Source of the DNA: Escherichia coli
GTDB taxonomy: Bacteria; Pseudomonadota; Gammaproteobacteria; Enterobacterales; Enterobacteriaceae
Length of the DNA stretch: 64,000 nucleotides
Reading direction: 5' to 3' (one strand)
Assembly: GCF_016903815.1 (NCBI RefSeq)
Contig: NZ_CP069973.1
Part shown: piece by piece, positions 49,754-60,350 of the stretch
How the letters are laid out: each line of letters starts with the position of its first letter
How positions within the stretch are numbered: the first letter of the stretch is position 1
The notes under the pieces: model-generated
Told to the model about the DNA's origin: nothing
Database searches by the model: none
What the model saw: the letters and a program-made list of their open reading frames with translations, nothing else
Translations under genes and position numbers: made by a program

Positions 49754-49954
49754 ATGCAACACGAACTACAGCCTGATTCACTGGTTGATTTGAAATTCAT
49801 CATGGCCGATACTGGCTTTGGTAAAACCTTCATCTATGACCGGATTAAGTCCGGCGACCTTCCTAAAGCCAAAGTTATCCACGGACGAGCAAGATGGTTA
49901 TATCGTGACCATTGTGAATTTAAAAATAAGCTCTTAAGCCGCGCCAATGGGTAA
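49754..49954 (+). CDS. AlpA-family excisionase / DNA-binding regulator (Xis) for prophage 1
   Basis: 66 aa, HTH; ends 74 bp before the att repeat at 50028; in the circular phage it would sit directly upstream of attP and the int gene at 10996. Confidence 0.65.
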   Translation: MQHELQPDSLVDLKFIMADTGFGKTFIYDRIKSGDLPKAKVIHGRARWLYRDHCEFKNKLLSRANG

Positions 49955-50027: not shown

Positions 50028-50043
50028 CTGCAGGGGACACCAT
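50028..50043. repeat. att core repeat (copy of argW 3' end); right junction of prophage 1 and left junction of island 2
   Basis: 16-bp CTGCAGGGGACACCAT identical to argW positions 10820-10835. Confidence 0.8.
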
Positions 50044-50206
50044 CCCGCTGTACACCAACGTCTACCATTGTCTATAAATCCCATGTAAACATATAAAAAT
50101 AAAGAGATTTTATTCTCATGACGTCCATTTCCGTCTATTGAAATCAAGTAAATCTATGGGGCATAATTAGGGGCATTGCTGGTTCGATTGTATATGTGCC
50201 CCCAAC

Positions 50207-51493
50207 ATGTCCAGAAATACCCTCAACAAATTAACAGACCGTCAGTGCAAAGCAGCTAAGCCACGAGACAAAACTTATAAATTGTCTGATGGTGGTGGTC
50301 TTTATCTTGAAGTATCCCAGACCGGGTCGAAGTATTGGCGAATGAAGTATCGCCGCCCATCAGATAAGAAAGAAGACAGACTTGCTTTTGGTGTATATCC
50401 AACCATTAGCTTACAAGACGCCAGAGAAAAACGAGACAACGCCAAAAAGTTGTTAGTCAAGGGGATAGATCCCAAAGCAGAGCAAAGAGCAGCAAAAGCA
50501 GAAGAAAAAGGCGCATTCACTTTTGAGACAATAGGACGTCAATGGGTTGAAAGCCACCAGATGTGGAACGAAGACCACCGAAAACGCGTACTTAGAAGCC
50601 TTGAAATGTATATTTTCCCTCACATTGGCACTTCGGATATTCGCAAACTGGAGGCGATGACAATTTTACCTTTGTTTAAGAAGGTAGATGACGCCGGGAA
50701 ACACGATACAGCCAACCGACTTAAACAACGAGTTAAGGACATCATACATAGCGCCCGTCTGAGCGGCATTAAGACAGAAATCATCACGAATGATCTCGAT
50801 GTCCGGTTAATGCAATATGAAACTAAGCATCATGCCGCACTACATCCCAGAGATTTACCAGACTTTTTCACTCGATTGGGCAGCTTTAAAGGTAATCCTC
50901 TTACCCGCCTTGCCATTGAGCTAACCATGTTGACATTTGTTCGTTCAAGCGAGTTAAGGTTTGCCCGTTGGAAAGAGTTTGACCTTGATCGGGCTGAGTG
51001 GATTATCCCTAAAAAAAGAGAGCCTATCGATGGTGTGAGGTTTTCCACCCGTGGCACAAAAACGGGAAAAGACGAACATATCGTGCTTCTTAGCCGTCAG
51101 GCTGTTTCTATTGTAAAGCAGTTGAGAGAACTAAGCGGAAGCTACGATGTTGTGTTTCCGAATGAAAGAAACACCAAAGGCGTGATGAGTGAAAACACGG
51201 TAAACAAGGCATTACGCTTAATGGGCTATAACACGCAAGAGGACGTAACTGGACATGGATTCCGTGCCACAGCCTGTAGTTCCCTGATGGAGTCCGGTTT
51301 GTGGCAGGAGGACGCAGTAGAGCGCCAGATGAGCCACAAAGAATATAAAGACGTTAAAAGAGCCTACAAGCACAAGGCTGATTACTTAGAAGAGCGCAAA
51401 CTAATGCTTCAATGGTGGGCAGATTATCTGGACGCCAATCGAGAAATACATATAAGCCCTTACGAGTTCGGAAGGAGAACACGCCGTGACTAA
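50207..51493 (+). CDS. P4-family tyrosine integrase (second, distinct integrase)
   Basis: 428 aa; N-terminal MSRNTLNKLTDRQCKAAKPRDKTYKLSDGGGLYLEV... (P4-int arm-binding type) and C-terminal catalytic 'HGFRATA' region; sits next to the att repeat. Confidence 0.9.
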   Translation: MSRNTLNKLTDRQCKAAKPRDKTYKLSDGGGLYLEVSQTGSKYWRMKYRRPSDKKEDRLAFGVYPTISLQDAREKRDNAKKLLVKGIDPKAEQRAAKAEEKGAFTFETIGRQWVESHQMWNEDHRKRVLRSLEMYIFPHIGTSDIRKLEAMTILPLFKKVDDAGKHDTANRLKQRVKDIIHSARLSGIKTEIITNDLDVRLMQYETKHHAALHPRDLPDFFTRLGSFKGNPLTRLAIELTMLTFVRSSELRFARWKEFDLDRAEWIIPKKREPIDGVRFSTRGTKTGKDEHIVLLSRQAVSIVKQLRELSGSYDVVFPNERNTKGVMSENTVNKALRLMGYNTQEDVTGHGFRATACSSLMESGLWQEDAVERQMSHKEYKDVKRAYKHKADYLEERKLMLQWWADYLDANREIHISPYEFGRRTRRD

Positions 51494-52241
51494 GATGACA
51501 GGACTAGATGCGTTTTATAACGAGTCAGAAGATAAAATCTGGTTTGGTAATCTGATCAGCGAACTGGCAAGACTAAACAATGAAAATGAAAGAATGATCG
51601 CTGCCGCTATCTTAAGTAACTACAGATTGAGCAAAGCTAAACCAGATACTTTAGGGGGGCTGGGCTTTTATCAGTTCGATTGGGTATCAGGTTTTACAAC
51701 TAATGACGACTTTGAAAAGCAGTGTGTGGAGTTTTTAGGTCTTCTGGCTATGGGGCATGAATACAGGGAGAGCCCGATACCGGGGGAAGAAGGGACTTTC
51801 AACGTTAGGAAAGGGGAAGACTTTTTATATCACGATGATGAGGATGATTGGTATGGGTCTTACGATTCGTTTTATTTCAAGCGCTCCGAGGTTGTGAACT
51901 TCTTCCCAGAACTGGATATGAATGTTCCAGATAACGAACCAGAAATTGGAGCACTGTCAAAAAAAGTAGAAAGAGAACAAAACTGGAGAGGAAAAGATAC
52001 GGCTTTAAAGATGATCGCCGGAATGGCGATTGCCTTATTTGAATCAAGCAAAGATTTCCATAGTGGAGGAAACCTTAGTATCAATAGGGTTAGTGCCCAA
52101 GTAATAGAAAACAACATAATATTCGGGAACGATGAAGACAGCGATACCCACCCAGATACATTTCGGAGATTGCTAACGAACGCTTTGGATAAGTACGCCC
52201 CCAAATTTAAGAAAAAAGCAACCAAAAAGCGTCCAAAATAA
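51486..52241 (+). CDS. Hypothetical acidic protein, overlapping the integrase stop
   Basis: 251-aa ORF overlapping int2 by 8 bp; no recognised motifs. Confidence 0.45.
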   Translation: MTKMTGLDAFYNESEDKIWFGNLISELARLNNENERMIAAAILSNYRLSKAKPDTLGGLGFYQFDWVSGFTTNDDFEKQCVEFLGLLAMGHEYRESPIPGEEGTFNVRKGEDFLYHDDEDDWYGSYDSFYFKRSEVVNFFPELDMNVPDNEPEIGALSKKVEREQNWRGKDTALKMIAGMAIALFESSKDFHSGGNLSINRVSAQVIENNIIFGNDEDSDTHPDTFRRLLTNALDKYAPKFKKKATKKRPK

Positions 52242-52397
52242 AGGAAGGATGTTCCCAAATTGTGCGTTAGAACTAAAAAATAACGCCCAATTTGGGGTAA
52301 TTCTATTCCCAAAAATTTTTTCTCCAAATTCACAGAAAACTTAAAAAAACAATGATTTACTATCTCACATAGTCAAGCAACGTATTACGAGGTAGAT

Positions 52398-52589
52398 ATG
52401 AAAAAGTCGCTGATTCGGCTATCTGAGGTTTTGAAACGCACTGGCTATAGCAAGGCGTGGGTATATGCTCTGATGAGCCGAGGACAATTCCCCCAATCAG
52501 TCAAGATTGGTGCTCGCGCAATAGCTTTTATTGAAAGCGAGATCGATGACTGGATCGATCAACGTATAGCCGAATCGCGTAGTAACTAA
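52398..52589 (+). CDS. AlpA-family transcriptional regulator / excisionase (island 2)
   Basis: 63 aa; 'RLSEVLKRTGYSKAWVYALMSRGQFPQSVKIGARAIAFIESEIDDWI' resembles the AlpA HTH family. Confidence 0.65.
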   Translation: MKKSLIRLSEVLKRTGYSKAWVYALMSRGQFPQSVKIGARAIAFIESEIDDWIDQRIAESRSN

Positions 52590-52637
52590 AGAACAGAAAC
52601 AAACAGGATACAAACAATACGTTATTAGGTATTAAGA

Positions 52638-52829
52638 ATGCAGTTGAAACCTACCAATCAAAAGCTGAACGTAACCCATGTTGATTTTGAAACCTTCGCG
52701 GCACTGATTAGATCAGAGCCACAAAAGGTGAGCACCAGCACCTGGGTTTATGATGTGAAATCCACCAGCGGTGGAAAAGCTATCGGCATTGCCTCTGGCG
52801 ATGATTACTTAGTAATAGATCTGATTTAA
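52638..52829 (+). CDS. Hypothetical small protein
   Basis: 63-aa ORF; position only. Confidence 0.3.
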   Translation: MQLKPTNQKLNVTHVDFETFAALIRSEPQKVSTSTWVYDVKSTSGGKAIGIASGDDYLVIDLI

Positions 52830-52910
52830 TCGCACAAAAATTGTAGAGTAATTTGGGGAGACAGGAAGTCTCCTCCATATTACATTTTGGTACAACAGTA
52901 AGGGAATAAA

Positions 52911-53105
52911 ATGATTAATTACCTGACCGCTAAAGACGCAGCAGAATATCTTGGCGTCTGTCTGTCACGCTTCTATCAGTTAAAGCGATATATCCGAAGC
53001 TTTCCTCCCTATATAAATCAGACCATCAATGGACGCAAGCGCCGGGTGTGGCTTGCCTCCAGCCTTGATCAATTTGCCGACAGATTTCTGGGGGGACGAA
53101 AATGA
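52911..53105 (+). CDS. Small HTH DNA-binding protein
   Basis: 64 aa; 'LTAKDAAEYLGVCLSRFYQLKR' looks like an HTH; ATGA overlap with the next ORF. Confidence 0.4.
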   Translation: MINYLTAKDAAEYLGVCLSRFYQLKRYIRSFPPYINQTINGRKRRVWLASSLDQFADRFLGGRK

Positions 53106-53488
53106 GCACTCTTACACGCTCTCAGGTCGCCGCGAATATACGCGATATCCTACTAAGTGGCAGGAAGCTTACCCCAAAAGAGTTTGACGACATATTAAGG
53201 AAAGCCGGAAATCACGAACGTAGTCGCGTTTTAACGCTGTTACGCAACGATTGGGGAATTCCTGTTGAGCAGTTTAAAACAGAGGCGTATCACGTCACAG
53301 AACGCAATTTAGAAGCATACCACAGCGATAAAGACGAAACATTGAAGATCTGGAGGACGAACGCCAGATATGTAAAGACATTGCGTAAGGTAAACATAAC
53401 GTTGTCGTTGTTGCGTGGGCTGGTGGGTAAAGTGCCTGAAGACACGCTTAGAACTGTTTACAAGGGTATTGAAACCAAATACCTGTGA
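53102..53488 (+). CDS. Hypothetical protein
   Basis: 128-aa ORF coupled to the upstream HTH gene. Confidence 0.4.
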   Translation: MSTLTRSQVAANIRDILLSGRKLTPKEFDDILRKAGNHERSRVLTLLRNDWGIPVEQFKTEAYHVTERNLEAYHSDKDETLKIWRTNARYVKTLRKVNITLSLLRGLVGKVPEDTLRTVYKGIETKYL

Positions 53489-53556
53489 TTGACAAAGCAG
53501 AAAGCCGACTTTGCGAGAGTCGGCTTTGAAGCAATTGAAATATATGAACTTTACAC

Positions 53557-54609
53557 ATGGAATTATACGATAAAGACGCGAGTCTATCCACAAAATCACA
53601 AGCCGTAATCAATCACATCAATGGTCGCACATTAGCTTATGTGAGATCAGTTACGCACAAACGTAATGAATTAAAGGCGGAGAATAAACGCCAATCATCA
53701 AAGGCTAACCACTGCATACCACCAGCTTGGACAAAGAAGAAATGGCGTACAATGAGGCGAGCTTTGTTTACTCTGGATGTCGAATCAACTAGTGGTATCC
53801 CCTACTCCTTTACCTTCAGACCCGTTAAGGGAACAACGCCAGAGAAATTCAACAAAGCGTTAAAGGCACTTACCAGATGGTTGACTTCGAAAGGCAATCA
53901 GTGGGTTTACGTCATGGAGTGGGCTCAACACCAGTCAGAGCCGCATGTACACGCAATAATTATGGTGAACGAAAGAAGCATTAATGGGCAAGCAGGCAAA
54001 ATTGTCAGCAAATGGGTAACACTGGCAAACAATGCAATCCCATCAAATGTTCCTCCCCAGTGGGATCTAGATTTGAAAGGTCAGCAATATTCAGAGCCTA
54101 CAAGGTGTATAGGTAAACAGATTGATTACATGGCAAAACCCGAAACTAAGTTAAATGACTTTAATAGAGAGGCGAGCAAGAGCCTATATGATTGGTCAGA
54201 TGCCAACGTTTGGGGTTATTCGAATGGCTGGGCGCGGCATGAGATAAAAAAAGAAACACTTTCTATCACTGGCTTTCATGCTGTAAGACGCATACTAAAA
54301 GCCATTCAGGCATCAAGGAAAGACAACTACAAAGTTAAGCGACAGATACAGCGTACATTGAAACGACAAGACATAAATCGCTCACCAATCACCCCGTTCC
54401 AAGCACCGTTAATTAGCAAACACGATTGGGATTTATCAGTGATAGCGGTCACCAAAGAGGCAGAGACAGAGCGCAGGGAGTTACTATCCTCACAGACAAT
54501 AAACTCGAACAAAGTACAAACCCACCCGCTGTTAAGGATGTTAAGAAAAGCACGAGTGAGAGCATCCAGAGCCAGAAGAGAAAGCGGAGGTTATGACCAT
54601 TACTACTAG
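53557..54609 (+). CDS. Putative replication initiation protein (HUH-type Rep)
   Basis: 350 aa; candidate HUH motif 'PHVHAIIMV'; basic C-terminus; followed by GC-rich short repeats (54670-54730) in an AT-rich context. Confidence 0.5.
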   Translation: MELYDKDASLSTKSQAVINHINGRTLAYVRSVTHKRNELKAENKRQSSKANHCIPPAWTKKKWRTMRRALFTLDVESTSGIPYSFTFRPVKGTTPEKFNKALKALTRWLTSKGNQWVYVMEWAQHQSEPHVHAIIMVNERSINGQAGKIVSKWVTLANNAIPSNVPPQWDLDLKGQQYSEPTRCIGKQIDYMAKPETKLNDFNREASKSLYDWSDANVWGYSNGWARHEIKKETLSITGFHAVRRILKAIQASRKDNYKVKRQIQRTLKRQDINRSPITPFQAPLISKHDWDLSVIAVTKEAETERRELLSSQTINSNKVQTHPLLRMLRKARVRASRARRESGGYDHYY

Positions 54610-55407
54610 TAGTGACAGATCGTGACAAGGCAGAGCAAAAAACGACCAATATAAGAGAAATATCCCTGCCCAATCGCCAAAAGCGCGGAGCGCGGAGCGC
54701 GGCAAGCGCCGCGAGAGGCGCAAGAAGGCGAACCTATCCATTGAAACGGTCAGAAGAGCGCATCGCGCTCGATGACCGAAGTCCCCACTAACACCGTTAA
54801 CGAAAGATCAAAGTCTTAGAAAAAAATGACGTTTCTTTGAAGGGCTTCCATCCGTAAAAATCAAATTTTGAGATAAAGTACTTATAGAAATTAATCACTC
54901 TATAAGAGTGAGTTGACGTGAGTTTGAAGTGAGCAACATATTAAAAATATATATAATAATCAAACATATAATAACAACTACTGAGCAAAAATCACCAGAA
55001 AACAACGTCAACGTAACGTCACTCTGTAAGCACTTTTTCAGTCACTTTTTGGGTTGAATACACGTATAAATCCCCAACCATGAAATTTGAGCGCGTAAGC
55101 ACGACTCTGAAAGGCTTTTTATCTTTTAACCATTTAATATACCTGAGGTATTGAAGAAGATTCTGAGACATATACTAGAACTTTACCGTGCACGACTAAC
55201 AACATAAACGTTATATTTATATATAAATCAATGAGATAAATACATCCCCATCCAAAAAACAAGCATAACGCAAAATTGCGTTATCAACTTAAAAGGTACG
55301 ATTGAATCTGACAGTCTGCTCTGAGCGAAATGTGGGCACGTTCACCATAAGTCTCCAGATTGAAACGAAATGATAGTGTTAAATGTTCGATAGTTACTTT
55401 TCTAAGC

Positions 55408-56400
55408 TCAACGTTCGTAATAGTAATCCGACACCTCAGTAAAATCTATTTCCTCCCTAGAAAGTAATGATTCCATCTCATCTAGTTTATCGATTTGAGG
55501 CAAAACACTTGTTGGTGAAATCACAACATTAAAGTCCTCATTATATCGGTGACCTACCCTTGTGAGCTCTTTACCTAATTGCAACAATATATAATCACGT
55601 AAAATAAGTTGATTCCGTCTAAATCGAATAAGACGATAGTAATGGAAGAAATCAGAACATTTTGATGAATCATAATTTCTACCATTCCACCCGGTTTTCC
55701 TCGTAGCTCGGAATAATGCTTGCTCTTGCGTATTTTTCCAAATGCTAAAATCAAAGTGACTTTTCGGGTTAGGATTTTCGTATGTTGCTTGAGGATAAAA
55801 ATTAGTAACACCAAATTGATGCTTGTCAATGATCTTTAAAGTCCGATTTTGTTCAGACAACATCCGCCTTAAGGACCTAGGAATTTCGAAACGCATTAGT
55901 TTGTTTTTATCCAAGATTCTTAATTCTCTTGGAAGCATCTCATGATCCCGTTCTAAATATCTTTCACACCGTTTCGGCACATACTGAAAATACACTGAAA
56001 AAAAACAAAATATATTATCAGAAACGAGAGGAGTAATATGTATTTTTTCTTGCTCAGGAACGTTTTGAACAAAATAGTATGCCGTTCCTTGCCAAATCAA
56101 CGATTGCGCTACTGCCTCCACCAATTCACGTATTGTTTCATCTACCGAGTATTTCCTATATCTAGCTTGTAAATTTCCAAACATTTTACGTATGAGTTCT
56201 TCGTCGTTAGTTTCGACTTGAAACAAATTGGTATCACCGTGATTTACAAAATTAAAAACTCTAGCAAAATCCTCATAAAACATCCTTTGATAGAAACCTG
56301 GTCGTTCATTCTTAGACTTGGTCAATAGTCTATCAACAAAACTTAATTGCTCAGGATCGACGCTATAACCGTAAAGGGGTATATTCTTGATAATTTTCAT
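55408..56400 (-). CDS. Uncharacterised soluble protein, second gene of a candidate two-gene accessory (defence?) operon
   Basis: 330-aa ORF, ATG at 56400 with AGGA 7 nt upstream; ATGA overlap with the upstream gene stop; AT-rich; no family motif recognised by eye. Confidence 0.6.
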   Translation of the reverse strand: MKIIKNIPLYGYSVDPEQLSFVDRLLTKSKNERPGFYQRMFYEDFARVFNFVNHGDTNLFQVETNDEELIRKMFGNLQARYRKYSVDETIRELVEAVAQSLIWQGTAYYFVQNVPEQEKIHITPLVSDNIFCFFSVYFQYVPKRCERYLERDHEMLPRELRILDKNKLMRFEIPRSLRRMLSEQNRTLKIIDKHQFGVTNFYPQATYENPNPKSHFDFSIWKNTQEQALFRATRKTGWNGRNYDSSKCSDFFHYYRLIRFRRNQLILRDYILLQLGKELTRVGHRYNEDFNVVISPTSVLPQIDKLDEMESLLSREEIDFTEVSDYYYER

Positions 56401-58862
56401 TCAAAATCCTTATCGTATTCCACGCCAAAACGACGAGCCAACTCACTAACATGGTAATCGATCTTGAAGTCAATTTGCTCGAGTTGCGGGAAAATTTCGA
56501 GAGCACAAAAGAGATGCGATGCATCTGAATGGGAGTTTAAGAACTCTCTGACAACTTTGTTCGTATGAGATTTCCCTCGATTCATTCCCATTTGATCGCT
56601 AAAGCCATCATGTCTTGCGCGGCGCTCAAATTCCATTTTCCAGTTAAGACGAATCATATCTCTCGGTGATGCGCACAAGCTGAAATTGCGCGGATTTGAA
56701 AGAATCATCATTCTCTTCAAATACTGCTGTTTGTTGGGAACAGACTCGAGCCAAGACTTAAACCTATCAAGTACTGTTTTAGATAGTTTTGCATTATCGA
56801 AATAAGCACTGTAAAGGATAGCAAAACCTAGAACTGACATCAGATCGTTGATCGCGGATGAAAGGAGATGCAGTCGAAACTCGTTGTTTATATCGAGTTT
56901 CGGATCTACAAATTTGGTATCTGATGCCAGCAATGAGAGAACCATGAACATAGGGAATACCTTGCTCAGTTTATTTTCATCATTCTGTTCAAGCGCATGT
57001 ATACATTCCTCAGCCAACTCAAAATATATCTGTCCAAAATGATCCGGTAGTTCATCATCTTGCTCTTGTTCAATGATATGTCCCACAATTTCCACCCTAC
57101 CAAGAATAGCTATAGCTTCATCCTGTGTAACGACAAACTGTTTGAGCATTTCAGCAATATTAATTTCTGGTAATGCGTATAGCTTTTCAGAGTAGTGCTC
57201 GTACTTTCTGTATCTCTCCAAGAGCAGAGAAAGTTCATTAAACCAATGGGGAAACTTCAAATGATTATGTAGGCTAGCGAGAACGACTTGCGTTGCGGCT
57301 TCCGGCATCTTCATGTTTATCAGTGAGTTAACGAAATCTGGAACCATGTTTACGTGAAAATCGCATACTTCTGGCAGAATTTTAGAATATTGTTGTAATA
57401 ACTTCTGAACCGCCAACTGCTGGACGTACTTTGGTTTGGATAATCTCTGTCCTTCAATCTCTTTTTCGAATTCGATACGTTCTACGATAAAGGCCAACTC
57501 AACCTGCAGAAAAGCAGGCAAAGTGTGTAGAGAGGTCTCTGTCCAGATATCATCTTTAAAGAACTGCTCCAATTCTTTCTCAAAAGTAATCATGCGGCGT
57601 AACATTTCAAGGCAAAGATTGCTGCCTAATGCAGCCCATGCATCCGCAATTCCAACTTTTATCACCTTTTCCTCAAAATAATTAACGACATCAGACGGTG
57701 TAAAGGCTTTTTCAATGATCGTCTTCATTTTCCGAAGTTCACGTATACCAATATCGAACTGAAACTGTTGTGCATAAGTTAATATACGAGATGAGAATAG
57801 ACTGATGAGATCCAACCCGAGCTTGAAATCACCGGCTTTGAATGCAAGTTCAATATGGCCTACCAACCTATTGATAATTTCATTCTCTAACCAAAGATAA
57901 TTTGGTTCTTCTTCAACCGTTAATTGGCTCCTTGTTTTTAAAGCAATGGATGTTACACTGTCGCCAGCTAAGAACCATTGCTTATGTTTTATTCGTCTAG
58001 GGAACCAGTAACTTTGATAATCAATTCTGTGTTTCTGATTAAGGTAATGAAGAAGTAATGCCGAATAAACATTACTGAGAGCAGGTAAATTATCTCCGAG
58101 TCCTACTTTTTCACATATCAGGCGATCATCAATGTAGTTTAACTGCTCAAAGGCCAAATGTGCGGCTTTAGAGTGATGATTAGCTAAAGATACTGAATTC
58201 TTGGGATTAGACGCACCTTCGATGTGTCGTGCAATTCGTGGGAGTATTTCACTTCGGGCTAACTGATTTAGGTCAAAAAAATTGAATAATCTTTGACCTA
58301 ATGGGAACAGAGCTAAGGAACTAACAAGTGTCAGCAATGTTCCCATTGCATAAACGAAAAGACCGGGTTCAACCCCGAACAAGTGGAGAGCAGTTGCACT
58401 AAGACAAAACACCGCAGAAAGCACTAAAGTCCGCGAATACACATTACCTACCTGCTCGGTAGTAAGCATTTGTATAATATCTCGCCGAAGTCTGGTATAT
58501 CCTGTACTTAGAATGATACCTATTGTAGCAAAGTATATTGAAAATATAGCGGTAAGTATCTGTGCGTACAACCTAAGTTGATCAATATTAAATTTTTTTT
58601 CATCATAGCTAAGAGGATGAAGCAAAATCGTATTATTCCGAATATAATCTTCAACAAAACCCAGTGCAAATAACGTTAATATGACCCATAACAAATTTTT
58701 TAAACCTACCAACGCAAAAGACATAAAAACATGAGCGTTAGACTTAGCTTTAAAAACAGACGTACGATGTATGTATGACGCACGTTCTAAAATAAATCTA
58801 ACCCTCACAAGATCTGTTCTTAATTTCCAGAACCACTTTTGAGAAATAAGCCAAACCTTCAT
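56397..58862 (-). CDS. Uncharacterised large membrane-anchored protein (four N-terminal TM helices plus ~600-aa cytoplasmic domain), first gene of the candidate operon
   Basis: ORF 56397-58874 (TTG) with first ATG at 58862 (about 821 aa); hydrophobic segments VFMSFALVGLKNLLWVILTLFALGF, LYAQILTAIFSIYFATIGIILST, RTLVLSAVFCLSATALHLF, LFVYAMGTLLTLVSSLALFPL; no Walker A, HNH or other obvious motif found by eye. Confidence 0.6.
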   Translation of the reverse strand: MKVWLISQKWFWKLRTDLVRVRFILERASYIHRTSVFKAKSNAHVFMSFALVGLKNLLWVILTLFALGFVEDYIRNNTILLHPLSYDEKKFNIDQLRLYAQILTAIFSIYFATIGIILSTGYTRLRRDIIQMLTTEQVGNVYSRTLVLSAVFCLSATALHLFGVEPGLFVYAMGTLLTLVSSLALFPLGQRLFNFFDLNQLARSEILPRIARHIEGASNPKNSVSLANHHSKAAHLAFEQLNYIDDRLICEKVGLGDNLPALSNVYSALLLHYLNQKHRIDYQSYWFPRRIKHKQWFLAGDSVTSIALKTRSQLTVEEEPNYLWLENEIINRLVGHIELAFKAGDFKLGLDLISLFSSRILTYAQQFQFDIGIRELRKMKTIIEKAFTPSDVVNYFEEKVIKVGIADAWAALGSNLCLEMLRRMITFEKELEQFFKDDIWTETSLHTLPAFLQVELAFIVERIEFEKEIEGQRLSKPKYVQQLAVQKLLQQYSKILPEVCDFHVNMVPDFVNSLINMKMPEAATQVVLASLHNHLKFPHWFNELSLLLERYRKYEHYSEKLYALPEINIAEMLKQFVVTQDEAIAILGRVEIVGHIIEQEQDDELPDHFGQIYFELAEECIHALEQNDENKLSKVFPMFMVLSLLASDTKFVDPKLDINNEFRLHLLSSAINDLMSVLGFAILYSAYFDNAKLSKTVLDRFKSWLESVPNKQQYLKRMMILSNPRNFSLCASPRDMIRLNWKMEFERRARHDGFSDQMGMNRGKSHTNKVVREFLNSHSDASHLFCALEIFPQLEQIDFKIDYHVSELARRFGVEYDKDFE

Positions 58863-59087
58863 TATATCAATCAAGTGATACCTGCCTTCTCATCTCTACA
58901 TGCAACATAAAAATGCTTACTATGGTGGCAAACAAAATCAAGAATCATATGTTTGAACACTTTTTACGCACGAATTATCCGGTGTAAGATACTTATAGTC
59001 AAATGGCAGGGCTAATCTCATCTGTATTGAGCTATTAACAGCCATATGTAAGACTAAGAAACGCGCCCAGCAAAGGCGCGTTCTGCA

Positions 59088-59264
59088 TCAGGTAAGTTTG
59101 CTGGGGTCTACGGTTTCCATCCAATCTGGAGCAATTCCCAAACGTTCCGCTATCTCTTCGTTGGTCATGTCTTCAGTTGAGAAATTAGCCAGAGAATCGT
59201 TAACTTCAGGATAGTCAGGGGAGAGTAACAGGTATTCCCGCAACGCTTTCAGATCTTTTTCCAT
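59088..59264 (-). CDS. Small hypothetical protein with downstream terminator
   Basis: 58-aa ORF (MEKDLKALREYLLLSPDYPEVNDSLANFSTEDMTNEEIAERLGIAPDWMETVDPSKLT), not in the ORF track; followed on its strand by hairpin aacgcgcc/ggcgcgtt (59056-59086). Confidence 0.3.
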   Translation of the reverse strand: MEKDLKALREYLLLSPDYPEVNDSLANFSTEDMTNEEIAERLGIAPDWMETVDPSKLT

Positions 59265-59431
59265 TTTAACGCTCCTTGTTTATTGACAGTCGAACGATGG
59301 TGAAGATTCTTGCCATCTCAAGTACAGGCAAGAAAATCCACCAGAACACCAAATTATCTCATAAGGTTAAATCGGTGTCGGGCTATTTCTTTCGGCTAGG
59401 TGAGTGTACCGCCTTAACCACCGGCAATTAT

Positions 59432-59560
59432 CATTGTCTCAATTGGGTATACCGTAATGACAAGGTGATACAAAGTCTCAATAGGGTTGTATAGGAACAT
59501 TTTGACTACACAAAATGCATTATGTATCATTTGCACTTATATTCACAACCCTATTGAGAC
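59432..59560. promoter_or_regulatory. Putative recombination (res-like) site with perfect 16-bp inverted repeat upstream of the serine recombinase
   Basis: gtctcaatagggttgt (59475-59490) and acaaccctattgagac (59545-59560) are perfect reverse complements separated by 54 bp; a related half-site 'tgtctcaattggg' lies at ~59437-59449. Confidence 0.5.
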
Positions 59561-59566
59561 AATGCA

Positions 59567-60193
59567 ATGAACGTTAGAATTTACTGCCGAGCATCAACTG
59601 AGGGGCAACACGCTGATCGAGCACTTACCAGCCTACGTGAATTTTCAAAATCAAAAGGCTGGCAGATTGCAGGAGAGTATATAGAAAATGCTAGCGGGGC
59701 GAAGCTTGAGCGCGTAGAGCTTATGCGGCTATTGTCTGAAGCCCAGTCCGGCGATCTGTTGCTAGTGGAAGCTATAGATCGTCTGAGTCGCCTAGAACAT
59801 AGCGCATGGGTCGAACTGAAAGATACGCTCAACCGAAAAGGGTTAATCATCGTATCAATGGATTTACCAACGAGCTGGCAGATGGTCGAGATGGCAGGCA
59901 ATGACCTAACCAGCGGCATCCTGAGAGCCGTAAATGCCATGTTGATTGATATCCTTGCCACAATGGCACGGCAGGATTACGAAACACGTCGTAAACGCCA
60001 ACAGCAAGGCATTGAGCGAGCTAAAAGCGAAGGAATATACATTGGCAGGGAGAAAAATCAGGAAGCCCGAGAGATCGTTAGAGAGATGTTGGAGCAAGGA
60101 GTAAAACCTGAACTCATCATGAAGGCAGCAGGAATCAGCCGAGCGACTTACTACCGTATAAAAAGTGAGCTGTCAGTCGTAAAATCAGAATAA
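59567..60193 (+). CDS. Serine recombinase (resolvase/invertase family)
   Basis: 208 aa; N-terminal catalytic region 'VRIYCRASTEGQ' with the nucleophilic Ser; C-terminal HTH 'ISRATYYRIK'. Confidence 0.85.
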   Translation: MNVRIYCRASTEGQHADRALTSLREFSKSKGWQIAGEYIENASGAKLERVELMRLLSEAQSGDLLLVEAIDRLSRLEHSAWVELKDTLNRKGLIIVSMDLPTSWQMVEMAGNDLTSGILRAVNAMLIDILATMARQDYETRRKRQQQGIERAKSEGIYIGREKNQEAREIVREMLEQGVKPELIMKAAGISRATYYRIKSELSVVKSE

Positions 60194-60327
60194 CCTTTGA
60201 AAGGTCGTCAGGCTTGTTTCATCTGCTAAAAGCCAGCATTTCTGACCATAATACCTGGGGGCACCTACTGGGGCACCCACCAAAATCGAAAGACAAATAA
60301 GTTATAATTCAATCTGTTAGTTTACTT

Positions 60328-60350
60328 TTCGATTCCTGCAGGGGACACCA
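60328..60350. repeat. att core repeat (third copy of argW 3' end); distal junction of island 2
   Basis: 23-bp TTCGATTCCTGCAGGGGACACCA identical to argW positions 10812-10834. Confidence 0.8.

Follow-up and report, generated by a model that had tools for sequence, protein, structure and literature searches.

Closest described systems

In Gram-negative phage-inducible chromosomal islands (PICIs), AlpA is the master activator and is switched on by helper phage; the existence of a repressor and the route of the phage signal to the alpA promoter are still open (PMC6092414; PMC11773190). In Gram-positive PICIs, the Stl/Rpr proteins bind the regulatory region of the excision/replication operon and define island-specific control (PMC6092414). 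The gene described here, X (251 aa; positions 51486–52241, plus strand), lies between int and alpA of an integrated island of Escherichia coli (contig NZ_CP069973.1) and was analysed within a stretch of 64,000 nucleotides (64 kb), hereafter the window. X is tentatively read, with confidence just short of even, as a two-domain protein that binds DNA sequence-specifically and regulates the alpA promoter, probably by repression, within an immunity-like cassette. No published description of X or of the int-alpA slot was found in a literature search.

On this reading X would be functionally nearest to Stl/Rpr and to phage immunity cassettes, though it belongs to neither group. It shares with Stl/Rpr of the Staphylococcus aureus pathogenicity islands (SaPIs) a position next to int in a phage-satellite-type island, high divergence between islands and a two-domain build, which in Stl/Rpr consists of one part for DNA binding and one for sensing a partner (PMC6092414). 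Binding of a regulatory region is suggested for X by sequence comparison: the repeat arrays associated with X overlap the predicted hexamers of the alpA promoter and co-vary with the type of its C-terminal domain (CTD). Stl/Rpr carry an N-terminal helix-turn-helix (HTH) of the XRE type, whereas X has no HTH_3 match and its candidate DNA-binding domain is C-terminal. The Stl/Rpr genes are transcribed away from those that they control, whereas X runs in the same direction as int and alpA and lacks a divergent promoter pair. No relationship in sequence or fold between Stl/Rpr and X was found.

Like the lambdoid immunity regions (cI/cro and operators), the X block combines a putative specificity protein and repeated sites in a sharply bounded divergent block with near-identical flanks, and all sites change together with the protein. 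Unlike them, X swaps its CTD only, and the sites, of three unrelated types, are direct or inverted repeats of 8–11 bp; a divergent promoter pair, a LexA/RecA-type cleavage domain and homology to the lambdoid proteins are all lacking in X. From AlpA, Vis and TorI (PF05930) X differs in being four times longer, in having no PF05930 or HTH_17 match and in co-existing with a genuine AlpA 156 bp downstream; membership of X among directionality factors of the AlpA/Xis type is not supported by these comparisons.

Reading frame and conservation of gene X

X starts with GTG; the coordinates include the stop codon. It shares 8 nt (51486–51493) with the 3' end of int, which encodes a tyrosine integrase of 428 aa (50207–51493, plus strand; Arm-DNA-bind_3, Phage_int_M, Phage_integrase). 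The product is acidic (isoelectric point (pI) 4.97; 43 D+E vs 32 K+R). A Shine-Dalgarno sequence, AAGGAG, is present at 51472–51477, 8 nt 5' of the GTG. An alternative start, ATG at 51495, lies 17 nt from AAGGAG, and GTG is preferred because of this spacing. The same open reading frame (ORF) is called by RefSeq/PGAP (WP_001535476.1, 'hypothetical protein'). Between E. coli alleles the ratio of non-synonymous to synonymous divergence (pN/pS) is 0.08–0.16 in X codons 1–140, and int is similar. Homologues of X with 25–44% identity hold the same int/alpA position in other islands. X is a genuine, conserved gene and more than a chance ORF, since its N-terminal pN/pS is low and homologues recur at the same position.

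No match to X was obtained in Pfam, PHROGs, NCBIfam or PADLOC. X together with nine relatives likewise gave no family or profile match, and none in Pfam even at E ≤ 5 (10 members). Single-sequence and profile searches of PDB sequences returned nothing significant, and tblastn against phage and plasmid collections returned no match. A sequence-only reading of the window had described an acidic 251-aa ORF that overlaps the integrase stop by 8 bp and has no recognisable motif; both observations hold, the latter throughout these family and PDB searches.

Domain architecture of X

The structure of X was taken from an AlphaFold2 model (predicted local distance difference test (pLDDT) 72). The N-terminal domain comprises codons 1–141 (51486–51908, plus strand), has a pI of 4.4, is alpha/beta in build with no assigned fold, and is 98–99% identical in protein sequence among E. 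coli alleles. It is modelled over residues 6–140, with pLDDT >80 in most 10-residue blocks and dips to 52–70 in three. An acidic linker follows (codons 142–166; 51909–51983, plus strand), predicted to be disordered (pLDDT <50, residues 142–164). The CTD (51984–52241, plus strand) is of type 1 ('GKDTALxMIAG...'; types are given below) and consists of four helices and a basic tail. By comparison with solved winged-HTH domains its fold may be winged-helix-like, the resemblance being weak. The CTD is proposed to be the DNA-binding specificity domain.

Hypervariable block

Four E. coli island variants were aligned. The island core (int; alpA through rep) is 97–100% identical among the four alleles, with AlpA 100% and Int 97–99.8% identical. 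A hypervariable block with sharp edges (approximately 51,900–52,330; 40–55% DNA identity) covers the last ~115 codons of X and ~90 bp past its stop. In two alleles, synonymous divergence (pS) is 0.07–0.16 in the X N-terminal domain (51552–51900) vs 0.015–0.022 in int (50207–51450); from this several-fold difference a recombination boundary is placed near the int/X junction, in addition to the one in mid-gene. A shufflon or silent-cassette origin of the CTD variation was rejected, no extra CTD- or N-terminal-domain-like copies being present elsewhere in the window.

Repeats, hairpin and predicted promoters

Five repeats are spread from the 3' end of X to the predicted alpA promoter. R1, CCCCCAAATTT (52199–52209, plus strand), is inside the X 3' end and encodes A-P-K-F. 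R2, TTCCCAAATTG (52252–52262, plus strand), and R3, which reads CCCCAAATTGGG (52286–52297, minus strand), are the 5' and 3' arms of a hairpin. R4 is TTCCCAAAAAT (52306–52316, plus strand). R5, TCTCCAAATTC (52321–52331, plus strand), overlaps the predicted alpA −35. YCCAAATT sites are clustered: 4 of the 7 in the 64-kb window fall within 131 bp (52200–52330), with a fifth, related copy at 52306. In 9 of 12 loci tested, recurrent 9-mers outnumbered those in every one of 30 shuffles; the three loci without enrichment were L015, L002 and the DUF6387 locus L033.

The first repeat lies within the last X codons in the window (52199–52209), in L005 (8794–8810) and in L029 (6285–6301). The C-terminal peptide of X is class-dependent (A-P-K-F vs A-K-L-E-D) and spells the DNA motif of its own class. 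This points to constraint on the 3' end of the gene at both the protein and the DNA level.

Promoters were called by their match to the consensus. The sole promoter-like site before alpA is TTCACA-16-AATGAT (52329–52356, plus strand), the predicted alpA promoter. In L005 the CCAAATT-GACA junction makes the −35 of a promoter with a 10/12 match, and another repeat overlaps its −10. A promoter-like site 5' of int, TTGAAA-18-CATAAT (50138–50167, plus strand; 10/12 consensus match), is predicted as the candidate promoter of an int-X operon. A strong RNA hairpin with a U-run (52243–52309, plus strand; −28.2 kcal/mol, z = −5) is probably the terminator of the int-X transcript; Rfam gave no known structured RNA in the region. 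A CCCAAATT site at 52850–52857 was rejected as a part of the system, since it is unchanged in 4/4 alleles, including class B, and stands beside a hairpin between two downstream ORFs.

The co-expression of X with int that the overlap had implied in the sequence-only reading is plausible in the window: the GTG sits at Shine-Dalgarno spacing within the int 3' end, the two genes are not separated by a terminator, and a strong hairpin with a U-run appears only past the X stop. The coupling is not universal, because distant homologues have their own upstream spacer of 143–217 bp.

Correspondence between C-terminal domain type and repeat type

CTDs and repeats were compared in a sample of 13–14 loci, and repeat type tracks CTD type in 13. 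Type 1 CTDs (8 loci) are accompanied by TTnCCAAA-type repeats in the spacer. Type 2 CTDs, found with an X-type N-terminal domain in L034 and with a different N-terminal domain in L031 and L032, are accompanied by 6–9 ACCCTnA / ACCCTnAGGGT sites. Type 3 CTDs (L002, L037) are accompanied by 3–4 copies of TGGAATATTCCA (GAATRTTCC sites). Motifs of types 2 and 3 show no cross-occurrence, against a background of 0.01–0.06 sites per 200 bp. Among E. coli alleles, those with a CTD of the 'ALKMIAGMAIAL' kind have TTCCCAAATT-type copies, and every copy is of the ATTACCAAAC type in those with a CTD of the 'AMRTIAAMAILL' kind.

Three unrelated CTD types are paired with the X-type N-terminal domain, as in natural domain swaps. 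The protein of L034 (P0017) combines an X-type N-terminal domain with a type 2 CTD (39% identity to the L031 protein, E = 2e-16) and type 2 repeats, and the AlpA of L034 is closest to that of L002, whose repeats are of type 3. Five ACTTCCAAA copies come after the stand-alone type 1 CTD of L011; the alpA start there, of which few codons are on the contig, resembles that of L002. L032 and L033 have integrases of 96% identity, yet differ in slot proteins and spacers. The CTD therefore predicts the repeat type, and AlpA, Int and the N-terminal domain do not. AlpA and Int were rejected as binders of the repeats in the E. coli alleles, their sequences being 100% and 97–99.8% identical while the repeats differ. 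Motifs persist even where spacer and CTD have diverged to saturation (window vs L012 and L008; L031 vs L034), which favours selection on the sites over simple hitch-hiking.

Proposed role and alternatives

Because the CTD travels with matching alpA-promoter repeats, X is most likely the DNA-binding switch protein of the island and not an excision cofactor. X would be made together with Int from the int promoter, its start codon lying inside the int 3' end. Its CTD (residues ~167–240) would recognise the short repeats, which run from the last X codons through the X-alpA spacer onto the alpA −35, and their occupancy by X would set how much AlpA is expressed, AlpA being the master activator/excisionase in islands of this sort. 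In the most likely mode, alpA would be held off while the island is integrated; repression is the likelier sign because the putative operators overlap core promoter elements and X would be made with int in the integrated state. CTD and repeats would together make up an 'immunity-like' cassette open to exchange. A constant role, in oligomerisation or in reception of an inducing signal (e.g., a helper-phage protein), would fall to the conserved acidic N-terminal domain. The sequence-only reading had also suggested, in general terms, a regulatory factor, and this idea is backed by the comparison, in which repeat arrays at the alpA promoter track the CTD of X.

Several points weigh against a regulator of the alpA promoter. 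Every function proposed for X, from DNA binding by the CTD and action on the alpA promoter to repression and the part of the N-terminal domain, is drawn from sequence, and the sign of regulation is a guess. The predicted alpA promoter matches the consensus at only 9/12 positions. R2 and R3 are simply the arms of a terminator-like hairpin, and the type 2 palindromes, too, are scored as small hairpins that resemble terminators. The CTD has a pI of ~6 once its lysine tail is removed, and the whole protein is acidic. Part of the correlation between CTD and repeats could be linkage within one cassette, because the two are physically contiguous. The X family is rare, and many PICIs fill the slot otherwise or with a small ORF only; X is for this reason no universal regulator of such islands.

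The least improbable of the alternatives, though an unlikely one, is that X is accessory cargo (anti-phage, helper-interference or host-modulating), with its CTD in an arms race with phage targets and with the repeats, as part of the alpA regulatory region, bound by another factor, such as one from a helper phage or the host. The slot is indeed variable among PICI-like islands (DUF6387, coiled-coil 'bZIP', ~67-aa ORF in EcCIMP1), the island carries defence genes, and a hypervariable domain in a conserved gene is typical of conflict interfaces. Genes c1499 and c1500 of EcCICFT073 presumably lie in the int-alpA slot. Their joint deletion left transfer unaffected (PMC6092414). Cargo is opposed, however, by the constancy of the position of X across very divergent islands, which is unlike that of typical cargo, and by the lack of a PADLOC match for X. 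The repeat type tracks the CTD even where the N-terminal domain, AlpA and Int differ, and cargo would need an unrelated external factor that co-varies with the CTD.

Direct action at the attachment (att) sites, as an integrase cofactor or the recombination directionality factor that the sequence-only reading had offered, is very improbable. In its favour, the 8-nt overlap with int is kept in a 44%-identical homologue, and the N-terminal domain and Int stay constant together across the E. coli alleles. The role is nevertheless unsupported because an AlpA-family excisionase (PF05930) adjoins X, and X itself has no Xis-, AlpA- or Cox-like match in Pfam or PHROGs. The X-associated repeats (52199–52331) are outside any attP arm region, being ~2.2 kb from the att core (50028–50043); distant homologues stand 143–217 bp away from int, and X diverges much faster (25% identity) than Int (36%). 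Marginally less probable again is a DNA-recognition module for packaging (pac-site/TerS-like), iteron-binding replication or partition. The repeats start inside the 3' end of a gene and run downstream, as in some pac sites, and the 10-kb island (at argW, see below) has no recognisable packaging gene. Yet the same cassette accompanies unlike replicons (rolling-circle Rep here vs DUF927/D5 primases elsewhere) and always lies directly upstream of alpA, overlapping promoter-like hexamers, and profile and PDB searches gave X no similarity to TerS, ParB or Rep families.

If regulation of alpA by X is correct, it may extend to the other proteins of the slot. X and these proteins would be island-specific master regulators of Gram-negative PICI-like islands, with CTD/operator 'immunity groups' that silence alpA and N-terminal domains that receive the helper-phage signal; this extension is doubtful, and would, if true, explain the induction of alpA by helper phage. 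X is a concrete candidate for alpA control: its family is unannotated, is placed exactly between int and alpA, and combines an exchangeable putative specificity domain with operator-like repeats on the alpA promoter. Its confirmation would provide a handle on the induction of defence-carrying islands, add a new family of DNA-binding domains in which three specificity classes can be read, and allow a recurrent 'hypothetical protein' to be annotated by rule. Were the regulator model refuted, the sharply bounded block would still be an unusual recombination or conflict hotspot inside a gene.

Distribution of the X family and other occupants of the slot

The X family has 16 matches at E ≤ 0.001 among 1.84 billion representative proteins, none of them named. 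Word-indexed searches gave 10–27 relatives, to which profile versions added only fragments, CTD-only or split forms. The full family alignment contains no conserved stretch usable as a search pattern. Among 5,426 complete E. coli genomes, 225 (~4%) contain X-coding DNA (megablast of 51486–52600). A scan of genome contigs with the P0018 group found no relative; a scan of viral contigs found only the same two E. coli alleles, within over-extended prophage calls. PADLOC gave no match for P0018 and P0026, as for X.

At every readable locus the X homologue follows a P4-type integrase gene and, where the contig reaches far enough, precedes alpA. The 8-nt int/X overlap recurs in the 44%-identical homologue (L008–L010). 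Distant loci are PICI-like islands with AntA and DUF927/D5 primases, in which the gap from int to X is 143–217 bp; compared with the window, Int is 35–36%, AlpA 62–75% and X ~25% identical.

Fused and split forms occur. In some assemblies int and X are fused (P0008, P0009, P0010), in frame as Int 1–200 with X 98–251 and Int 1–53 with X 150–251, and as a read-through int-X; all have the look of products of deletion or frameshift at the locus. The slot protein is split in two ORFs in Pluralibacter gergoviae (L029, 5751–6297; 81 + 98 aa) and on a metagenomic contig (L011, 307–1008; 135 + 90 aa). Proteins of 91–103 aa that are nearly all CTD occur in Klebsiella aerogenes and Enterobacter asburiae and are known from protein sequences alone. 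The CTD may work as a separate polypeptide, or the split and CTD-only copies may be decaying.

Other slot proteins, of 265–293 aa, are encoded in L031 (3024–3821), L032 (2991–3788) and L033 (2907–3788). They are coiled-coil proteins annotated 'bZIP' or belong to DUF6387 (PF19924), and are like X in position, orientation and size; no published function was found for either kind. The coiled-coil protein resembles a member of the X family in having a type 2 CTD and its own repeat array, with 5–6 ACCCTnAGGGT palindromes downstream, and has an unrelated N-terminal part. Downstream of the DUF6387 gene (L033) are an inverted repeat of 11 bp, TCCGCTTTGAA...TTCAAAGCGGA, and one more, partial copy, ATCCGCT. 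Homology of X to DUF6387 was rejected (hhalign probability 0.7%, X family vs L033 protein; no Pfam assignment), as was homology to the N-terminal part of the coiled-coil protein (hhalign 2.7%). EcCIMP1_002, an ORF between int and alpA (PMC11773190), was rejected as a relative of X, being ~67 aa and unrelated.

Island context

The window contains a tandem array at a tRNA-Arg(CCU) gene (10760–10834), which we take to be argW: a lambdoid prophage of ~39 kb, terminating with a torI-like xis gene (49754–49954), is followed by a 10.3-kb island (50,044–60,350), and each is closed by a repeat of the tRNA 3' end. The left att copy of the island (50028–50043), at the junction with the upstream prophage, is a 16-bp copy of the argW 3' end (10820–10835); the right att copy (60328–60350) repeats 23 bp of that end. 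The island stands directly at argW, with no prophage, in other strains (L012, L013, L015).

The order of genes in the island is int, X, AlpA, 63-aa ORF, 64-aa HTH, 128-aa ORF, G2P-like Rep, 330 + 825 aa, 58-aa ORF and resolvase. AlpA (63 aa; 52398–52589, plus strand) is an AlpA-family regulator/excisionase (PF05930, E = 3.6e-18) and begins 156 bp downstream of X. As in Gram-negative PICIs, int is followed by a co-directional alpA, the att site is specific, and the size is 10.3 kb, against a yardstick of roughly 10–20 kb (one PICI size read, 19,963 bp). The pri-rep trait of PICIs is absent, the primase being replaced by a rolling-circle HUH Rep like the G2P of inoviruses (53557–54609, plus strand; PF23343; PHROG 30534 over residues 136–350). 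The Rep ORF is 285 aa in PGAP vs 350 aa as the longest ORF. No packaging gene was recognised in the island with Pfam and PHROGs.

The variable cargo slot (55408–58874, minus strand) holds genes of 330 and 825 aa, co-oriented on the minus strand with a 4-nt overlap and with no Pfam, NCBIfam, PHROG or PADLOC match. At the same slot, sister islands carry a SIR2 protein (L012), an AAA_15/21 ATPase and DUF4435 pair (L013; presumably PARIS-like) and a 470-aa protein without assignment (L015). The position is considered a defence-cargo slot because sister islands carry defence genes there, and the 330- and 825-aa genes are a candidate novel two-gene anti-phage system. A small GC-rich hairpin, GGAGAC...GTCTCC (52854–52875), lies between the 63-aa ORF and the 64-aa HTH gene and is kept in 4/4 island variants, perhaps as an attenuator or a terminator internal to the alpA operon.

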